NCBI GenBank assembly: GCA_041690355.1
Contig: JAWLHK010000030.1
Location: 1 to 43,319 of the forward strand
DNA: 43,319 bases
From: a bacterium
Lineage (GTDB): Bacteria; J088; JAWLBW01
Direction: 5' to 3'
How positions within the stretch are numbered: position 1 is the first letter of the stretch; the number at the start of each line of letters is the position of its first letter. Shown in pieces: positions 13,780-21,776 of this stretch. The position numbers were made by a program, and so were the translations under genes. The notes beneath the pieces are model-generated. The model did not search any database, was not told where the DNA came from, and worked only from the letters and a program-made list of their open reading frames with translations.

Positions 13780-14766
13780 TCAACGGACGAGGCGTAAACG
13801 GGCCGCGCGGGGTTTGGGCACGCGGATCCGGTGCAGGCGTTTGTTGACGGCCGCGCGGTCAAACCGGCCGGGGTCGAAGCTGCCGCCGAGCCACTCCCGG
13901 TAGCTCTCGTGCTCGTCATCGCCGGGATCCGCGAGCGAGGCCAGCATGCGCTCATACCCCGGCGGTCCGCCGACGTCTTCGGGAGGACACGCATTCTTCC
14001 CCGCCAGGCAACTGATGCGCCCGTCCGGCGGCGGCTCGGCGAGCACCTTTTCGACGACGACCTCGTGCTCCCAACTGTCGCCGAAATCGTATTCGTAGAT
14101 CAAGTGGTCCTTGGGCGCGCCGAGGAGATCGCCCACGTACATCTTGCGCTCGTCCCCATCGGGCGGCGTGAAGTCGTCTTCGTGGGGAATCGCATAGCGC
14201 AGATGTCCGAGCAGGAACTGGTGCAGGTGGCTGTCGGTCCACCCCATCGCTTCCTGCAGAACCGTGTGCAATGCGGGCAGCTTGAGATCCGCGGGCACGA
14301 CCACGCGCCGCCAGACGGCCGGTGCGACATGCCGCAGCGTAACCTTGAGCTGCAGCCAGGCGCCTGCCGGCGCATGTGCCCTGGGCCGGGTCGCGGGCTG
14401 CGCCTTCTGCAGATTGACGATGATGTTCGAGAGCGGGAAAAGGTTACTCTCGACGTAGGCGGCAATCTGGCGGGCTTCGCTCTGCGACAGAAGCTCCATC
14501 AAGACGTGGGCCTGCAGGTAGGTCTCGGCCAGGGCGAGCAGATCGAGATTGTCGCTGTCGTCGCGCCCCTCCGCGAGCGCGCCGGCGAGCGCACCCGGGG
14601 TCCACGTCTTCTCCCGCGCAGCGCGCGGGATCTGGTAGGCCATCGGTCCGACCGCGTACCGGCCGAACTGCGTGTCGAGGATCGTGGCCAGCATGCCGAT
14701 CTCGAGGAGCCACTCGGCGTTGGAGGCGGGAAGCGGGCGATCGGCGGCATTCGGTACGCGAGACAT
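13780..14766 (-). CDS. Plasmid pRiA4b ORF-3 family protein with N-terminal extension
   Basis: LQLKVTL..VWRRVVVP..LHTVLQEAMGWTDSHLHQF, YEYDFGDSWEH, CPPEDVGGPPGY; start uncertain. Confidence 0.88.
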   Translation of the reverse strand: MSRVPNAADRPLPASNAEWLLEIGMLATILDTQFGRYAVGPMAYQIPRAAREKTWTPGALAGALAEGRDDSDNLDLLALAETYLQAHVLMELLSQSEARQIAAYVESNLFPLSNIIVNLQKAQPATRPRAHAPAGAWLQLKVTLRHVAPAVWRRVVVPADLKLPALHTVLQEAMGWTDSHLHQFLLGHLRYAIPHEDDFTPPDGDERKMYVGDLLGAPKDHLIYEYDFGDSWEHEVVVEKVLAEPPPDGRISCLAGKNACPPEDVGGPPGYERMLASLADPGDDEHESYREWLGGSFDPGRFDRAAVNKRLHRIRVPKPRAARLRLVR

Positions 14767-14817
14767 GCGGGTCAGCGTATCAGAAGGTTGACCGGGCGGC
14801 GACTGGCGCCGATCATC

Positions 14818-14930
14818 GGACGCCGGTAGGCACCCACCTTGGGGAAAGACAAGACATAGGGACCGGCGATTTGCCAAAACATGGGTACCCGTTCTTGCCG
14901 GAATATCAGTGCTCAGCGCTTGGCGCTTCT
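14818..14930. repeat. Family B dispersed repeat, copy 3
   Basis: Shares the GGACGCCGGTAGGC leader and the core with 346-452. Confidence 0.8.
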
Positions 14931-14959
14931 CCCCCAAGGCACCCGAGGAACGGTGGACA

Positions 14960-15431
14960 CCCACTGTCCACCCTCTCGGCTACCGTGGCATGGCGCCCGG
15001 ATCACTTCGAGAACGCGCCCCCTGAGCTGCGCGCCGCAGCCCACGAACGGATGTGCGCCCTCACCGAAGCCTACCGGCAACTCGTGAATCTGCTCGTGCG
15101 CGACGGAAGCGGGTACGGCGGGGGCGACCGGGAGAGCGCCGACGTGGCCCGGTGGGTCGGGCGGGCGCACGGCCACGACACCGACCTGCGCTCCGGCGAC
15201 TACGCCGAGATTGTCGAGATCGGCCCGCAGGACGACTTCTACACCCGCCGCGACGCCTTCCTGGGCGCCCTCGTCCTGATCCGCGATCCGCTCCCCCGCG
15301 GCCTCGGCTGGTACTGCGTGCATGTCGCCTTCCACCTCAACCCACGCCTCCTCGCCCGCCATGCCGACGGGGCCCTGTTCGGGTATGTGCGGTTGCGGCG
15401 GGTTATTCATGCAGAAATGGAGAAGGGGTGA
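14960..15431 (+). pseudogene. Probable 5'-truncated J-domain-containing gene
   Basis: WRPDHF..ELRAAAHERMCALTEAYRQL resembles the second half of a J domain (HPD replaced by RPD); the ORF start lies inside a repeat. Confidence 0.45.
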
Positions 15432-15721: not shown

Positions 15722-16459
15722 TTATGAGGGGGCCAAGCCACAAGCCCTCATCGTCCCACAACATGCCAAGCCCGAATTCGCCTGGTAGAACTGTTGTTCA
15801 GCTTTGCGAACCTCATCGCGAAGTTTGCGAATTTGAATGAGGTTGGGCCCATGGCATGCCTCCACTCGAAGTGCCGACCCGCAAGGGCACTGCTTACCCG
15901 GGGTCGTGGTTGTGTTCCACTCTTGCAGTGAGGCGGGGACAGTCTCGAGGACCCTATCTAATTCAATTTGGATCTCGGCCGCTTTCCGTCCATGCGGCCA
16001 TGCGTCGTCCTGCCATTTTCCGGAGAGGGTGGCTTTATTCTGAAGCTTCAGAAAATGATGCAGGATGCCCCAGAATTTCTGGGCGTCGTTTCGTGTAATG
16101 GGATATGACGGTTGACTGGGGTCAAATCCCAGGCAGAAATACCCCTCCCGCACGATGTGTCTGGGGAAGCAGACTCCTGGTAGCTTTCTCGCCCCCGGAA
16201 ATTCACGAACCCTGACCGCACCTGGAGCAAACGGTCTTGCGGGCACCCACGAAGGGTCTGTAATCTCAATGACATACGTGGGACCCCGGCCATCGAGTTG
16301 CTCGGTGGCTACACCTGCCAAAAGCGTCGGCGTCCTTACGCAGCCGGGCAGCGTCAGGGCGTCAAGTCTCGTGTCTGACGAGCCGACCAAAAGTGAGGTT
16401 GTCACGTACTTCCGATCAGCCTCACGTTCCAGAAGAATGAGTGCAGGTGAAGGAGTCAT
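15722..16459 (-). CDS. Prokaryotic E2 (ubiquitin-conjugating-like) protein with SEC-C-like zinc motif
   Basis: PRHIVREGYFCLG resembles the E2 HPNI..G.ICL catalytic-Cys motif; CPCGS..CHG and CCGTM..C tail; ATGA overlap with the cyclase stop. Confidence 0.7.
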   Translation of the reverse strand: MTPSPALILLEREADRKYVTTSLLVGSSDTRLDALTLPGCVRTPTLLAGVATEQLDGRGPTYVIEITDPSWVPARPFAPGAVRVREFPGARKLPGVCFPRHIVREGYFCLGFDPSQPSYPITRNDAQKFWGILHHFLKLQNKATLSGKWQDDAWPHGRKAAEIQIELDRVLETVPASLQEWNTTTTPGKQCPCGSALRVEACHGPNLIQIRKLRDEVRKAEQQFYQANSGLACCGTMRACGLAPS

Positions 16460-17949
16460 TCCGCAAAGGCCCGACTCTTTACGAGCACGGGGCCCCCTAC
16501 CTGCTGTAAGACCTCCAATTTGGCTTTCTCGGCCGCCTTCTCGGGGATATGAGCCTCAACCATGTTAAAAGTCAGCTGGGTAGATTTTCCATTGGTATCG
16601 AAGAGGTCGCGAAAGTGTTCCGGGAGCTTCTTCTGCATGACCTCACCGACTGCCGTCTCGGAGCCACTGCAACGTTCCTGAGCAGCCTCCGAGCTGTAGA
16701 CTGCTTGGCCACCAGCCGCGCGAACTCGGCTGCCTTTCACCCCAAGGCGGGTGATGCTGAGCGGCCCGAACTCCAGTCCGATGGCCAAGCCGAGCACCTG
16801 CGTATCCGGTAGGATCTCTTGGATTTCTGCGAATGCGTCCCTCATCGCGCCGGCTGCCAGTAGTGCCTGGGTGATCGTCGCATTGACGTCAGTCGCTTGC
16901 GCACCCACGGCAATCATGGCATGCATGCAGTCCCCGATGTACCGAATCTTTCGACCCTCGAATACCTGGTGAATGATATTCCGCAGCTCGGTGCGGATTA
17001 CGTGGAGCGCCTGAATCGCCCCCTTCGCGTCTCCGTTCTCGATTGCTTCGCGAACGTACTTTGTAAAGCCGTCGATGTCCGCATAGATCGAGATGGCTTC
17101 GATGCGCCTCGAGTTGGCTGGGGTCAGTACACCAAATTCAAGTTGGTTCAGTGGGGGTGTCGGTCTCGAGAAGGAAATTTCCGAGAGCCGGTGCTCGGTG
17201 AGCTCCTCTTCCCAAGCATCGAGAAGCGAGTCCATTACGATGCCGAGCTGGGCGGCGGTTTCACAGTCTTCGATCTGGCCACTCGTCAATGGTGTCTGTT
17301 TCGGGTTGCTGGCTGCCCAACCTGCCCCCATCGACGATCTCGCCTGAGAACCAAGGTAAATGCCTTCCTGGTTGCCGGCGAGCAGTTTCGCGGCCTGGTT
17401 TGCGGGCTCCCCAATGAAAAGCGGTTCCCGATCGCCGTTCGTTCCGTTGTTCACGGCCAGCGAAATGCCCGACTCGATACCAATCCGAACTCTCACGTCA
17501 GGCAGTTCTTCGTGAAGCTCATCTGCCGCTTTCAGCAACCGCCACACCAAATTGGCCACCGCCACGGCGTTCTGGACCCTCGCTACTTCGCGAGAGGTAT
17601 CCTGGCCGTCGTAAGGTTTAAACACAACGAAGTGTAATCGCGCGTTCTGAAAGTCAACCCTCATGGCAGCATCCGTGTTCCGAAACACGGTATGGCAAGC
17701 CCGGACGTACAGGTTCAAAAAGCGAAGGTATCGTTTATGACTGCGTTCAGAATCCGACTTGTCGGTTTGAAGCAGCTCGCGGGCGTTCAGAATGTCGATA
17801 TAGACGTGAACACCTCGTACCAGGTAGGCCTTTCCGTTCGGGATAGAGGTCAGGTCCCGCTCTCGGACAAGGTCGACAATTTCCGGATTGGCGAGCTTCT
17901 TCTTCTCCGCTTCGCTACGCTTCCGGCTTTCTTCGATTGACCATTTCAT
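16456..17949 (-). CDS. Tandem class III nucleotide cyclase (two adenylate/guanylate cyclase-like domains)
   Basis: Domain 1: VYIDILN, RIGIESG, IGEPANQAAKL. Domain 2: IYADIDGFT, RYIGDCM, AIGLEFG. Confidence 0.85.
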   Translation of the reverse strand: MKWSIEESRKRSEAEKKKLANPEIVDLVRERDLTSIPNGKAYLVRGVHVYIDILNARELLQTDKSDSERSHKRYLRFLNLYVRACHTVFRNTDAAMRVDFQNARLHFVVFKPYDGQDTSREVARVQNAVAVANLVWRLLKAADELHEELPDVRVRIGIESGISLAVNNGTNGDREPLFIGEPANQAAKLLAGNQEGIYLGSQARSSMGAGWAASNPKQTPLTSGQIEDCETAAQLGIVMDSLLDAWEEELTEHRLSEISFSRPTPPLNQLEFGVLTPANSRRIEAISIYADIDGFTKYVREAIENGDAKGAIQALHVIRTELRNIIHQVFEGRKIRYIGDCMHAMIAVGAQATDVNATITQALLAAGAMRDAFAEIQEILPDTQVLGLAIGLEFGPLSITRLGVKGSRVRAAGGQAVYSSEAAQERCSGSETAVGEVMQKKLPEHFRDLFDTNGKSTQLTFNMVEAHIPEKAAEKAKLEVLQQVGGPVLVKSRAFAE

Positions 17950-17959
17950 CGTGAATTCC

Positions 17960-18523
17960 TCAACTCACAAGATTCAAAATAAGGGCCGCGACCAGCGCCA
18001 CCAAGCCGGCCAGTGCCGACGTCAGCCGTGCTCTCCCGAACCATTTATACTTTTTGGCGACAATCCGAGCCTGTTTGTACACTTGGAACGAGAGGTCGAC
18101 CCAAGCGGCCCGTCGGTCGAGACGAGCATATCGGTCGACATACTCTTTTCTCGGTGCGTCAGCGACCGCTCCGAAGTAGATCAACTCCTCCGGCTTATAG
18201 TCCTCGGGCCAGCCGCCTTGGTACTCGTCCTGATCCAGGCGTGCCTTCACGAGTGCGTAAATGCAGACGTACGAGGCGATCAGTAAACCCAGGCTCCCTA
18301 GGAGAGCCAAAATGACCATGGTTTTCAGCGGACAGTAGCCTGCCAAGACTTCGCTTGCCCGGACTTTGGGTGCCAGATCGGCCGAAAGCAGCACAAAGAT
18401 AGCCGCGTTCACCGGGATCAGGAAGGCACCCTTTCGGTCTGCAGCCTGAATCTGGCCATCCACGTGCAGGTTGGCCTGCTGCGCATGTTGATAGCGCAGT
18501 TGTAGTTGTTCGTCGTCGGTCAT
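17960..18523 (-). CDS. Pycsar-type transmembrane effector (PycTM/DUF5706-like)
   Basis: IQAADRKGAFLI, hydrophobic helices, LIYFGAVA, DLSFQVY..ARIVAKKY; ends 10 nt before the cyclase ATG; alternative start 18550. Confidence 0.8.
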   Translation of the reverse strand: MTDDEQLQLRYQHAQQANLHVDGQIQAADRKGAFLIPVNAAIFVLLSADLAPKVRASEVLAGYCPLKTMVILALLGSLGLLIASYVCIYALVKARLDQDEYQGGWPEDYKPEELIYFGAVADAPRKEYVDRYARLDRRAAWVDLSFQVYKQARIVAKKYKWFGRARLTSALAGLVALVAALILNLVS

Positions 18524-18806
18524 GCCTGTTCTCCACAGCTCGGCAACCACTCGATGAGCGGATAAGACCGGAGATGACAGGCAGGCGCTTGCGCGCCAGG
18601 GGGTAATTTGCTAAGTTGAGGATGCGATATCTGGTTGCCTGTCAACCAGCCTATGTACGGGGAAGTCATGTTGGCGCATGACTTCCCCATTTTTTTTGCC
18701 AATCTTGATATGTAAGCCTTAGTGCTCCCGCGAAAGAGACTCTTTCCGTCCTCGGCAATGAGCGCTCGGAATCATGCCACCTACAGTGAAGCACATTCTG
18801 CGCACG

Positions 18807-18855: not shown

Positions 18856-20019
18856 ATGGATAACGCCCTGAAACCGAATGCAATTTTGGCGGAAAATATC
18901 CGTAAGTACCGTCTAGAGCGCGGTCTTTCTCAGACTGATGCGGCAAAAACTGCAGGCCTCTCCCGGAATGCGTATCTTAATCTTGAGGCCGGCCGATCGG
19001 AACCACGATTTAGCACCCTTTTGCAGCTCGCGAACTTGTTTGGTGTGAAGCTAGAAGACTTCTTCACCCCGCCTAGGACTTTGCATTCCGTTCGTTTCCG
19101 CGCTCATAAGCAGATGACGACGAGGGATGAGATACTTCACCGCGTCGGCAGATGGCTGGACAGCTATGTCGAACTCGAACTCATCACGAAACAGGTCTGC
19201 GAATTTCCGGTCAAGAAGATACGGGGTGTCGCCTCGCGTGTCAAGAGTGGGAATCGAGCCGAAGTTGCCGCTCAAGAAGCCAGGAAAGCGTTTGGGCTGA
19301 ACGACACTGATGCTATCCGGGATATCTGCGGCCTCTTTGAGGACAAAGGTATTAAGGTCTTCGCTATGTCGGTTAAGTCGGACGGGTTCTTTGGGCTGTC
19401 CGTTGGTGAAGAAGATGGTGGCCCGGCCGTGGCTGTCAATACCGACGAACGAATTCCTGTAGAACGGCAAATATTCACTGCTGCCCATGAGTTAGGCCAC
19501 CTCATTCTTCACTTGGACGCATTCAATGTGAATAATTCGGAAGAGGATGAGCGGCAAGAAAAGGAAGCCAATCTTTTTGCAGGTTGCTTCCTCATGCCGA
19601 AGACGCTTTTCGAGTCAGAGTGGGAGGAAACGAGAGGTCTTCGCTTCGTCGATCGGGTCTTGAAGGTGAAGCGGATCTTCAATGTTAGTTACAAAACCGT
19701 ACTTTACCGTGTGGGCGAAGTAACGAACGAGCGGCAAGTCTGGGAACGCTTCAAAACGGAGTACAAAGAGCACTACCAGAAAACACTGAAGTTTGACGAG
19801 GAACCCGACGGCATTAAGGGGAGTATTCTGAACCATGGGGCACCCGCTCGGTTGGAGCCGAGGCGGTTGGACCCAGCCGACTTTATGGTTGATCGGCTGA
19901 ATCGACTTGTAAGGAAGGCTCTTGAGGACCAGTTAATAAGTCGTAGTCGAGCGGCAGAAATTCTTGGGATGCCAGTCCCACGTCTGCTCGAACTGCAAAA
20001 GTCCTGGGCGCTTCATTGA
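18856..20019 (+). CDS. XRE-family HTH fused to ImmA/IrrE (DUF955, peptidase M78) metallopeptidase
   Basis: N-terminal cro/C1 HTH; FTAAHELGHL HExxH; EKEANLFAGCFLMP; C-terminal ISRSRAAEIL. Confidence 0.93.
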   Translation: MDNALKPNAILAENIRKYRLERGLSQTDAAKTAGLSRNAYLNLEAGRSEPRFSTLLQLANLFGVKLEDFFTPPRTLHSVRFRAHKQMTTRDEILHRVGRWLDSYVELELITKQVCEFPVKKIRGVASRVKSGNRAEVAAQEARKAFGLNDTDAIRDICGLFEDKGIKVFAMSVKSDGFFGLSVGEEDGGPAVAVNTDERIPVERQIFTAAHELGHLILHLDAFNVNNSEEDERQEKEANLFAGCFLMPKTLFESEWEETRGLRFVDRVLKVKRIFNVSYKTVLYRVGEVTNERQVWERFKTEYKEHYQKTLKFDEEPDGIKGSILNHGAPARLEPRRLDPADFMVDRLNRLVRKALEDQLISRSRAAEILGMPVPRLLELQKSWALH

Positions 20020-20055
20020 TCAGCGTCATTGGAGCGCGCACTTTTGGACATATGG

Positions 20056-20604
20056 ATGAAGTTGCCATCAATAAAGAACGGCCTTGTTGTGGATGCAAGC
20101 GCTCTGATCGACCTATATGTTGGTGCCAGGAGAGCCCTTCCGCTGATTAGCGCAAACATTGGCCAGTTGCATGTGCCCACGCCCATTCTCAGCGAGGTCG
20201 AACACCTCGACGAAAGACGTTGTCGTCGTCTTGGCCTATCCGTTTATCAACCGTCGGTACAGCAGCTCACGATAGCGAGTCGTCGAATCGCAGGCTTGTC
20301 GTTCGCGGATCGAATCTGCTTGACCGTCGCCTGCGAAGAAAGGTGGGTAGTCGTTACGAATGATAAGCCCCTCAGAAAGCAGTGCGTTGAAGCCAACGTG
20401 CTCGTTGCCTGGGGACTGGAGCTGCTGGTAGACTTGGTCGGTCGAAAAGTCATCCCTAAAGACGACGCCGTTGCGATGGGCAAGGCGATTCAAGAAACCA
20501 ATCCTTACATTACAGCCGGGATATTGGATCGCTACGTGAAGAAGTGCGCGGGCGCAACTCGGGAAAACCTTTTGGTGCCGACACTTTTGCGAGAGTCATC
20601 GTAG
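20056..20604 (+). CDS. PIN-domain protein, putative toxin partner of the HTH-IrrE protein
   Basis: VVDASALID, ILSEV, LSFADRIC, VTNDKPLR; alternative start 20029. Confidence 0.8.
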   Translation: MKLPSIKNGLVVDASALIDLYVGARRALPLISANIGQLHVPTPILSEVEHLDERRCRRLGLSVYQPSVQQLTIASRRIAGLSFADRICLTVACEERWVVVTNDKPLRKQCVEANVLVAWGLELLVDLVGRKVIPKDDAVAMGKAIQETNPYITAGILDRYVKKCAGATRENLLVPTLLRESS

Positions 20605-20708: not shown

Positions 20709-21776
20709 TCAGGCAGGGGCATTGGCACCGGAGTTGACCGGGGGGAAGCGCCTGTGCACAGGTCGGCCCCGTCCCGACTTCTCGATAAGCGCCAACTCGA
20801 TGCCGTGCTCCTTAGAAAGAACATCCAACGTACCGGCTATCTGCTCCGCATAGCCGTCCTTTGTCTCCCCGGTAAGGAGGACGATGGCGGGGCCACGATG
20901 TTTCCACGCGGCAGTATATATCGGAAGTTGCTCTCGGATAAGTCGATCCAGCGCGTCCTTCCTATTGAGATCAGCTTTCATTTCAATGATGACATTGCCA
21001 ATGCAGATGTCCGCACGCCTAGTTAACCCATCAAACCCAGACTCCTTCGAAAGGTGAACACCAGGGAATTCGGCACTCAGGTGAGCATTAAGGCTGTCCT
21101 GAAACTGTCTCTCCCAAACAAGCCATCCCTGCGGTCGCCACGATTCAACGGCTCCGATGACACTTGCGACCGGGTCACCCGGAAATTGCATTGGCAGGCG
21201 CTCTGCTACGTCAAAGAGTATCGGCGCGCCTGCCGGAATCTCGGGCTCAACCTTTCGATAGGGGAAAGAGACCCTGACTTCAGGCGCAAGGTATGTCAAG
21301 GCGACGGCACCAAGCATGAAGATCGTACCGAGCGCTCCGTAGTTCCAAACCAGGGTCGGTGCATGAAAATTCACAAGCCTGACCCAGGCTACTCCTATGC
21401 CCTTCGTGAGAGCAAGGTGCGGATAGCCCAACGCATCGAGAAGACCAAAAAATGCGAGAACCACGAGTATTGCAACGAACCCCGCACGAACCTCTAAACC
21501 CTCGGCTCCTTCACGCATGAGCCAACCCAATGGGAGGCGGCGTCTGGACGCTGGAGCCTGATAGTAGACGACGGAGCCTAAAGCGATCGAGGCCAGGCCA
21601 ACGAGAACACCCAGCCCGCAAGCAAGGTAAAGAAAATCAGGCAATATCGGGAGCCATGCGGCACGAACGTACTGTAGAAACGCAGAGAGCCCGCAGAATA
21701 GAACGCCCACCACGAGGAAAAGAAGGTAGTAGGGGACGATGATTGTGGTCGCGACGTTATCGGCTTTCGTGCGCAT
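20709..21776 (-). CDS. Multi-pass membrane protein with C-terminal PD-(D/E)xK-like nuclease domain
   Basis: About four hydrophobic segments, then ERQFQDSL..E..RRADICIGNVIIEMK. Confidence 0.6.
   Translation of the reverse strand: MRTKADNVATTIIVPYYLLFLVVGVLFCGLSAFLQYVRAAWLPILPDFLYLACGLGVLVGLASIALGSVVYYQAPASRRRLPLGWLMREGAEGLEVRAGFVAILVVLAFFGLLDALGYPHLALTKGIGVAWVRLVNFHAPTLVWNYGALGTIFMLGAVALTYLAPEVRVSFPYRKVEPEIPAGAPILFDVAERLPMQFPGDPVASVIGAVESWRPQGWLVWERQFQDSLNAHLSAEFPGVHLSKESGFDGLTRRADICIGNVIIEMKADLNRKDALDRLIREQLPIYTAAWKHRGPAIVLLTGETKDGYAEQIAGTLDVLSKEHGIELALIEKSGRGRPVHRRFPPVNSGANAPA

Follow-up and report, generated by a model that had tools for sequence, protein, structure and literature searches.

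We analysed a 43,319-nucleotide stretch of bacterial DNA (hereafter the window; positions 1 to 43,319 of contig JAWLHK010000030.1, GenBank assembly GCA_041690355.1), which carries on its minus strand a three-gene operon built around a nucleotide cyclase of the Pycsar (pyrimidine cyclase system for resistance against phages) type. The cyclase gene, pycC, encodes a protein of 497 amino acids (aa) in one open frame that fills positions 16456..17949, with a start backed by a GAGGAA box 7 nucleotides (nt) upstream and by a Trp at position 3 that is near-invariant among homologues. Upstream of it, after a gap of 10 nt, the same strand carries the gene for PycTM (17960..18550, 196 aa), a predicted membrane effector that matches Pfam PF18967 (expectation value (E) 7e-9) and its PADLOC model (E = 2.2e-21) and has three hydrophobic segments by hydropathy, at about residues 41-61, 73-103 and 174-196. 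On the other side, also on the minus strand, is the gene for a 245-aa E2-like protein with a Cys-rich C-terminal domain (15722..16459), whose ATG overlaps the pycC stop codon by 4 nt (ATGA); the protein matches PF20298 (E2-ntca, E = 3e-11) and PADLOC PDLC00868 (E = 3.2e-32), and its match to PF20272 (E2-Crich, E = 4.3e-5) is below that model's cut-off. A sequence-only reading of the same DNA had proposed that the cyclase is a single-chain pseudo-heterodimer with one active site, one degenerate and possibly regulatory site, and an atypical base specificity.

Two PADLOC models for PycC matched the cyclase, PDLC00762 (E = 1.9e-167, residues 1-477) and PDLC02366 (E = 2.2e-165), and one solved structure was matched by sequence, chain A of PDB 6YII (514 aa; E = 3.1e-110, residues 6-473). 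In PMC11224242, 6YII is identified as the clade A PycC of Pseudomonas aeruginosa (PaPycC), and clade A enzymes are described as having two consecutive cyclase domains. The window protein has full-length similarity to this clade, two consecutive cyclase domains and an effector (PycTM) in its operon, and the class III cyclase fold is recognisable, with one full set of metal-binding Asp and Asn/Lys residues split across the domains. We assign the gene product to the clade A Pycsar cyclases. Of 8000 scored candidates, 416 were homologous at E ≤ 1e-5, the nearest being 62% identical, and members of the family are labelled in the source databases as 'class 3 adenylate cyclase', 'adenylate/guanylate cyclase domain-containing protein' or 'transcriptional regulator'. 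A search of NCBIfam returned no family for PycC, PycTM or the E2-like protein; identifying a tandem Pycsar cyclase accompanied by PycTM and an E2 partner ascribes a role in defence to this three-gene island. Two other origins of the long frame, an artefactual fusion and a pseudogene, were considered and rejected, given that the frame is open, full-length homologues span 477-529 aa and the structural model is confident. The only other cyclase-like match in the same genome (G000:C14:19799-20314, L020) is weak (27% identity, E = 5.9e-5) and falls inside an 888-aa open frame.

Along the chain we delineated a C2-like cyclase domain 1 (residues ~30-215, 17305..17862), a mostly helical linker (residues ~216-261, 17167..17304), a C1-like cyclase domain 2 (residues ~262-470, 16540..17166) and a C-terminal tail (residues 471-497, 16459..16539) that ends ...PVLVKSRAFAE and forms the low-confidence part of the model. 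Helices at residues 223-233 and 239-252 were modelled in the linker, where blocks of the predicted local distance difference test (pLDDT) score 94-98, and the alignment of homologues contains a conserved 'SRPTPPL' in this region, with P265 and P266 invariant. Pfam recognised domain 2 alone (PF00211, residues 282-406, E = 9.7e-9, above cut-off); domain 1 was not recognised by Pfam and was seen only when family profiles were compared with PDB cyclases and with domain 2. For the comparison of the two halves and for conservation we used an alignment of 50 sequences, picked by hand down the ranking from 120 listed homologues and split at the linker. Aligning residues 30-235 with residues 262-470 by hhalign gave a probability of 93.7% (E = 2e-7, 153 columns, 12% identity). 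A domain-1 profile of 16 sequences matched the PycC structure BcPycC (PDB 7R65, E = 7e-7) and the guanylate cyclase of the atrial natriuretic peptide receptor (E = 3e-4), and the domain-2 profile matched CyaB (PDB 3R5G, E = 8e-7); the match of the domain-2 profile to the C1 domain of type V adenylyl cyclase was not significant (E = 0.11).

The five motifs on which the sequence-only reading rested are all present in the 497-aa product: YADIDGFT (residues 289-296, window 17062-17085), RYIGD (residues 336-340, 16930-16944) and AVYSSEAAQ (residues 416-424, 16678-16704) in domain 2, and VDFQNARL (residues 98-105, 17635-17658) and ANQAAK (residues 183-188, 17386-17403) in domain 1. In the hhalign alignment the first metal-binding Asp positions pair as D52/D291, the second as A103/D340, the transition-state positions as N184/Y418 and K188/A422, and the base-selecting positions as D99/R336 and L177/A411. 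Domain 2 supplies the metal-binding D291 and D340, plus D293, and has Y418 and A422 in place of the Asn and Arg equivalents, as had been read from its motifs. Domain 1 supplies N184 and K188 together with D99, L177, Y50 and R104, and A103 replaces the second metal-binding Asp. The description of domain 1 as lacking this Asp while retaining the Asn-x-x-x-Lys motif was thus borne out, but the domain keeps its first acidic residue, D52 (D40 E8 S1 G1 across the 50 homologues).

Residues of the composite site are strongly conserved: D291, D293, D340 and N184 are each present in all 50 homologues, L177 likewise, D99 in 49 and K188 in 46 (His in the other 4). In the opposite pocket, residue 103 is never Asp (Q33 H5 E5 A3 T3 S1), residue 418 is mostly aliphatic (L25 I6 V4 R3 Y2 G2 and others) and residue 422, the Arg/Lys equivalent of domain 2, is unconstrained (A11, E9, K7 and others). 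Because this pattern holds across the 50 homologues, the complementary split is constant throughout the family and did not arise by chance. The pocket without the second Asp and the Asn/Arg pair cannot catalyse.

An AlphaFold2 model built from the 50-sequence alignment was confident overall (mean pLDDT 91.5, predicted template modelling score 0.89), with only the last ~27 residues uncertain. The top Foldseek hit in the PDB was 6yii, superposing closely over 477 columns (E = 2.4e-52, template modelling (TM) scores 0.90/0.94, root-mean-square deviation 1.9 Å, 41% identity); the entry, released in 2020, is titled 'Crystal structure of a Class III adenylyl cyclase-like ATP-binding protein from Pseudomonas aeruginosa'. 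Next in rank were ~30 structures of the human soluble adenylyl cyclase together with the C1-C2 soluble portions of AC9 and AC8, which superposed more loosely (TM about 0.5-0.6, ~420-480 columns, deviations of 8-13 Å; human soluble cyclase about 0.55 over about 460-480 columns), and BcPycC (7r65) spanned one domain of the model. Because the model matches 6yii and, more loosely, the single-chain eukaryotic cyclases, the chain is predicted to pack as an intramolecular pseudo-dimer, as in the crystal structure of its homologue.

Together, the internal duplication, the invariant complementary residues and the agreement of the model with 6YII bear out the proposed pseudo-heterodimer, a single chain in which one site is complete and the other degenerate. 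This deduction from sequence was correct but was already visible in 6YII and in the Pycsar literature; with a crystal structure of a homologue at hand, the idea opens no new question. By sequence alignment PaPycC has the complementary motif pattern of the window protein as well as its tandem fold. BcPycC, in contrast, is a homodimer with two symmetric sites, whereas the window PycC is one chain with one site; BcPycC, a single-domain synthase of cyclic UMP, and the other PycC enzymes of clades B-E share with it the class III fold and the type of defence system.

The comparison with mammalian adenylyl cyclases, which the earlier reading had drawn, holds in part. Membrane C1/C2 enzymes and soluble adenylyl cyclase are likewise single-chain pseudo-heterodimers with one catalytic and one degenerate pocket. 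Set against the mammalian assignment of catalytic residues to C1 and C2, however, the domains stand in the opposite order, the N-terminal one of the window protein being C2-like (Asn/Lys) and the C-terminal one C1-like (metal-binding Asps), a difference that the earlier reading had not noted.

Although the second pocket is incomplete, several of its positions are kept. R336, at the Lys position of domain 2, is present in 50 of 50 homologues, C341 in 48 and an acidic residue at position 52 (D/E) in 48; Cys occupies the Asp position of domain 2 in 41 of 50, where the window protein has Ala; and Q424 (49/50) and C427 (47/50) lie on the same helix. The pocket is not just decaying, and conservation of this kind could reflect a structural role or, alternatively, the binding of a ligand. 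One possibility, which we regard as rather unlikely, is that the degenerate pocket is a conserved allosteric or sensor site whose ligand activates the enzyme on infection, placing sensor and synthase in one chain. In its favour are these invariant or nearly invariant positions, the precedent of the forskolin and bicarbonate sites of mammalian cyclases, the words 'ATP-binding protein' in the title of the homologue's PDB entry, and a three-gene operon in which Pfam and PADLOC scans revealed no evident separate sensor gene. However, the Asn and Arg equivalents of the pocket drift freely, and the kept residues could simply hold the pseudo-dimer together (for example, through an R336-D52 salt bridge). 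Why the invariant residues of the dead pocket are kept is one question for which this locus could be a simple model.

Turning to base specificity, we located the adenine-selecting Lys/Asp positions by the spacing rule of class III cyclases, which gave D99 (four residues before the second-Asp position) and L177 (seven before N184). The substitution of Asp and Leu at these positions, inferred by eye in the earlier reading, was upheld (D99 in 49 of 50 homologues, L177 in all 50), and the Lys/Asp pair of the C2 half of mammalian-type enzymes, a point of difference from those cyclases, is absent from the window PycC. Two further residues of domain 1 align with BcPycC, Y50 (49/50) with its Y50 and R104 (50/50) with its R97. 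According to PMC11224242, UTP recognition in BcPycC involves Y50, D94 and R97, and PycC enzymes of clades A-D convert UTP to cyclic UMP (cUMP); PMC12489823 reports cUMP as the sole product of the P. aeruginosa enzyme. By homology to PaPycC, 3',5'-cUMP made from UTP is the most likely product of the window enzyme. The suggestion of an atypical base was therefore right in spirit, in that clade A membership (cUMP according to what PMC11224242 reports) makes cAMP an improbable product; the specificity itself was already known.

Several observations weigh against this assignment. D94 of BcPycC aligns with Q101, a position that is Gln in 25 and His in 25 of the homologues, so sequence does not settle the base preference. 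In the Foldseek alignment the window protein and PaPycC share no more than 41% identity. The title of 6YII speaks of an 'adenylyl cyclase-like ATP-binding protein', and a 2026 preprint predicts ATP preference for an E2-associated subclade, 'Pycsar-like-4', from AlphaFold3 ligand scores only. If that subclade is the family of the window protein, the ATP prediction conflicts with the reported cUMP activity of PaPycC. Of these points, the Gln/His position, the 41% identity and the preprint's prediction would favour a different cyclic nucleotide (cAMP, cCMP or cGMP), and with it a messenger unlike that of PaPycC, as would two others: the effector here is PycTM instead of the PycTIR that accompanies PaPycC (PMC12489823), and related 'Pucsar' cyclases are reported to make cGMP. 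We nevertheless consider another product unlikely, as D99 and L177 replace the adenine-selecting pair invariantly across a family that includes the PaPycC branch, Y50 and R104 match UTP-recognition residues of BcPycC, and clades A-D are described as uridylate cyclases in PMC11224242.

Downstream of the cyclase, an alignment of ten E2-like proteins showed an invariant RH...FC motif, with C109 present in 10 of 10, and five invariant cysteines in the C-terminal domain. The motif resembles the HPN...C motif of ubiquitin-conjugating enzymes; at the RHxN/Q position that is Asn or Gln in most relatives, the window protein carries Val. The locus has the arrangement of E2-only signalling, with a gene of E2 fold and catalytic Cys adjoining the synthase gene. 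The Cys-rich C-terminal domain may be a zinc finger. This domain (15722-15900, residues ~187-245, with CPCG...C.H and CCGT..C) gave weak, non-significant matches to the C-terminal zinc-binding peptide of SecA (E = 0.5-1.5). Compared by sequence with solved structures, the E2-like protein had no significant match, the best (E = 0.009) being a 29-residue chance match to HIV protease constructs.

To place the operon among its relatives, we scanned one genome per species, which yielded 50 pattern matches and, from these, 18 loci encoding relatives, and took a census of their genes by tblastn. These loci come from many genera. Directly downstream of the cyclase, 11 have a lone E2, 6 an E1-E2 fusion and 1 neither; the cyclase frame of this last locus (L018) looks aberrant. 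The fusion was confirmed in three of the six loci by Pfam ThiF and PADLOC E1-E2 matches (E down to 1.8e-211), the other three being supported by tblastn only. Of two JAB peptidase genes, the one in L008 was confirmed and the other is supported by tblastn only. PycTIR is the effector in 15 of the 18 loci, and a PycTM-like match, weak and on the opposite strand, occurs in 1. A second, short (~232 aa) single-domain PycC is present in 10 of the 18 (L001, L007-L014 and L016), matching PADLOC PDLC00766 (E down to 2.7e-107) and usually adjoining PycTIR (for example, L009:7208-7927 and L011:9286-9987). The window has neither PycTIR nor a second short PycC, so extrapolation to it from the related loci is imperfect, a further point on the contrary side; its operon is thus a minimal form consisting of a long cyclase, an E2 and a membrane effector. 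Systems of this kind are already in print: a 2024 preprint names a 'Type II Pycsar' with a fused E2-E1, and the 2026 preprint defines 'Pycsar-like-4' by its E2-like neighbours. As a compact E2-linked example, the present locus could be a simple model for regulation of a class III cyclase by a lone E2.

The cyclase tail differs according to the partner. A motif of the form [RKQ][AP][HFY] is conserved in the tails of the family alignment, in a region where the last three blocks of the model have pLDDT values of 58, 49 and 51, and the PaPycC tail (QPHSR...) is of the same motif type. We compared 16 related tails, excluding L017 and L018, which have no clean frame. All six cyclases linked to an E1-E2 fusion end exactly one residue past the aromatic, as [FH]A (...GFA, ...RHA), whereas in all ten linked to a lone E2 the aromatic is followed by a small residue (A/C/S/T) and then by 1-6 more residues. 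With its ending ...RAFAE, the window cyclase is of the lone-E2 type. Among the 120 closest listed homologues, whose gene context is unknown, 85 follow the lone-E2 pattern; in 7 the chain stops right after [FHYW][AG], and in 28 the position after the aromatic holds a different residue (W, V, L, R, F or Q). A stricter rule, that a small residue always follows the aromatic in E2-only tails, was accordingly reduced to a tendency; it is true in the 11 tails with known context.

These tails recall E2-only CBASS (antiphage signalling system based on cyclic oligonucleotides) operons, in which, according to PMC12948482, the E2 joins covalently to the C-terminus of the synthase and cleaves off what follows. 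In the E2-only type II system SmCdnG-SmE2, as in the window, a lone E2 gene comes after a synthase that ends in a conserved C-terminal element plus a few residues. The synthase there, however, is a CD-NTase (cGAS/DncV-like nucleotidyltransferase) with a Gly-Gly tail, whereas here it is a class III cyclase with an aromatic tail motif, and the E2 of the window has an additional Cys-rich domain. If the analogy holds, the cyclase tail may be processed by the lone E2 with no E1 taking part. That the E2-like gene is an unrelated neighbour with no part in cyclase function is very unlikely. The Val in its RHxN/Q motif would be compatible with such a view, and a prediction of the PycC-E2 complex (score 0.00 in both runs, controls not run) speaks for neither side; against the view stand the 4-nt overlap of its start with the pycC stop, the E2 or E1-E2 gene that comes next downstream of the cyclase in 17 of 18 related loci, the way in which tail type co-varies with E2 versus E1-E2, and the 'Type II Pycsar' and E2-linked Pycsar-like loci described in preprints.

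Combining these observations, we consider it highly probable that the locus encodes a clade A PycC with one composite active site, with cUMP as its likely product, acting on PycTM, and its tail as a probable substrate of the E2. The two class III domains of one PycC chain would pack head-to-tail, forming a predicted active pocket from D291 and D340 of domain 2 and from N184 and K188 together with D99, L177, Y50 and R104 of domain 1. Phage infection would trigger conversion of UTP to 3',5'-cUMP at this single site, and cUMP would then open or otherwise activate PycTM, damaging the membrane and aborting the infection. The translationally coupled E2 probably acts on the conserved cyclase tail and in this way primes or restrains PycC, as in E2-only CBASS.

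A more elaborate version would join the dead pocket to the tail, although we regard it as rather improbable. In that version the pocket (R336, C341, C427 and D/E52) would bind a small-molecule or phage cue, the E2, acting without an E1, would cut the tail after the aromatic-small motif and release the last residues, and a covalent adduct of the cyclase with the E2 or with a target would prime cUMP synthesis. If true, E1-independent 'ubiquitin-like' chemistry would extend from CD-NTases to class III cyclases. In our assessment three features are mildly new: the compact layout of PycTM, PycC and E2, a tail type that varies with the partner (a point at which no literature search was aimed) and a dead pocket that stays partly conserved.

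Finally, we examined the genomic setting of the operon. The fraction of G+C falls to 0.52-0.57 at ~16-22 kb of the window, compared with about 0.66 on both sides, and pycC used as a query at E ≤ 1e-20 was not found in 40 other genomes (one of the same family, three of the same phylum and the rest distant). A tRNA scan of the whole window detected none, so there is no island boundary marker of this type. The dip in G+C and the absence from the 40 genomes fit a mobile, horizontally acquired defence island; in this context the PycC locus would act as a putative protection against phages.

Divergent from the operon, on the plus strand, is a gene for a 387-aa protein with a helix-turn-helix (HTH) domain and an M78 peptidase domain of the ImmA/IrrE-like type (18856..20019; HTH_3, E = 2.5e-16; Peptidase_M78, E = 6.1e-20). 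It also matches the PADLOC models RmrA, capP and capH, with a match to the NCBIfam spr1629 repressor/antitoxin family below cut-off, and is followed after 9 nt by a 191-aa PIN-domain protein identified by its domain match (20029..20604, plus strand). M78-like matches occur upstream and on the opposite strand in 2 of the 18 related loci (L002 and L003). The HTH-M78 protein may control transcription of the operon, in which its membership is uncertain; one reading is that it regulates the island, another that it makes up a separate toxin-antitoxin-like pair with the PIN-domain protein. Farther out, a 355-aa open reading frame with a hydrophobic N-terminal half (20709-21776, minus strand) was matched by none of Pfam, PADLOC and NCBIfam. 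A short way past the E2 gene, also on the minus strand, positions 13780-14964 encode a 394-aa protein with a strong PRiA4_ORF3 (plasmid pRiA4b ORF-3-like) domain (E = 2e-60).

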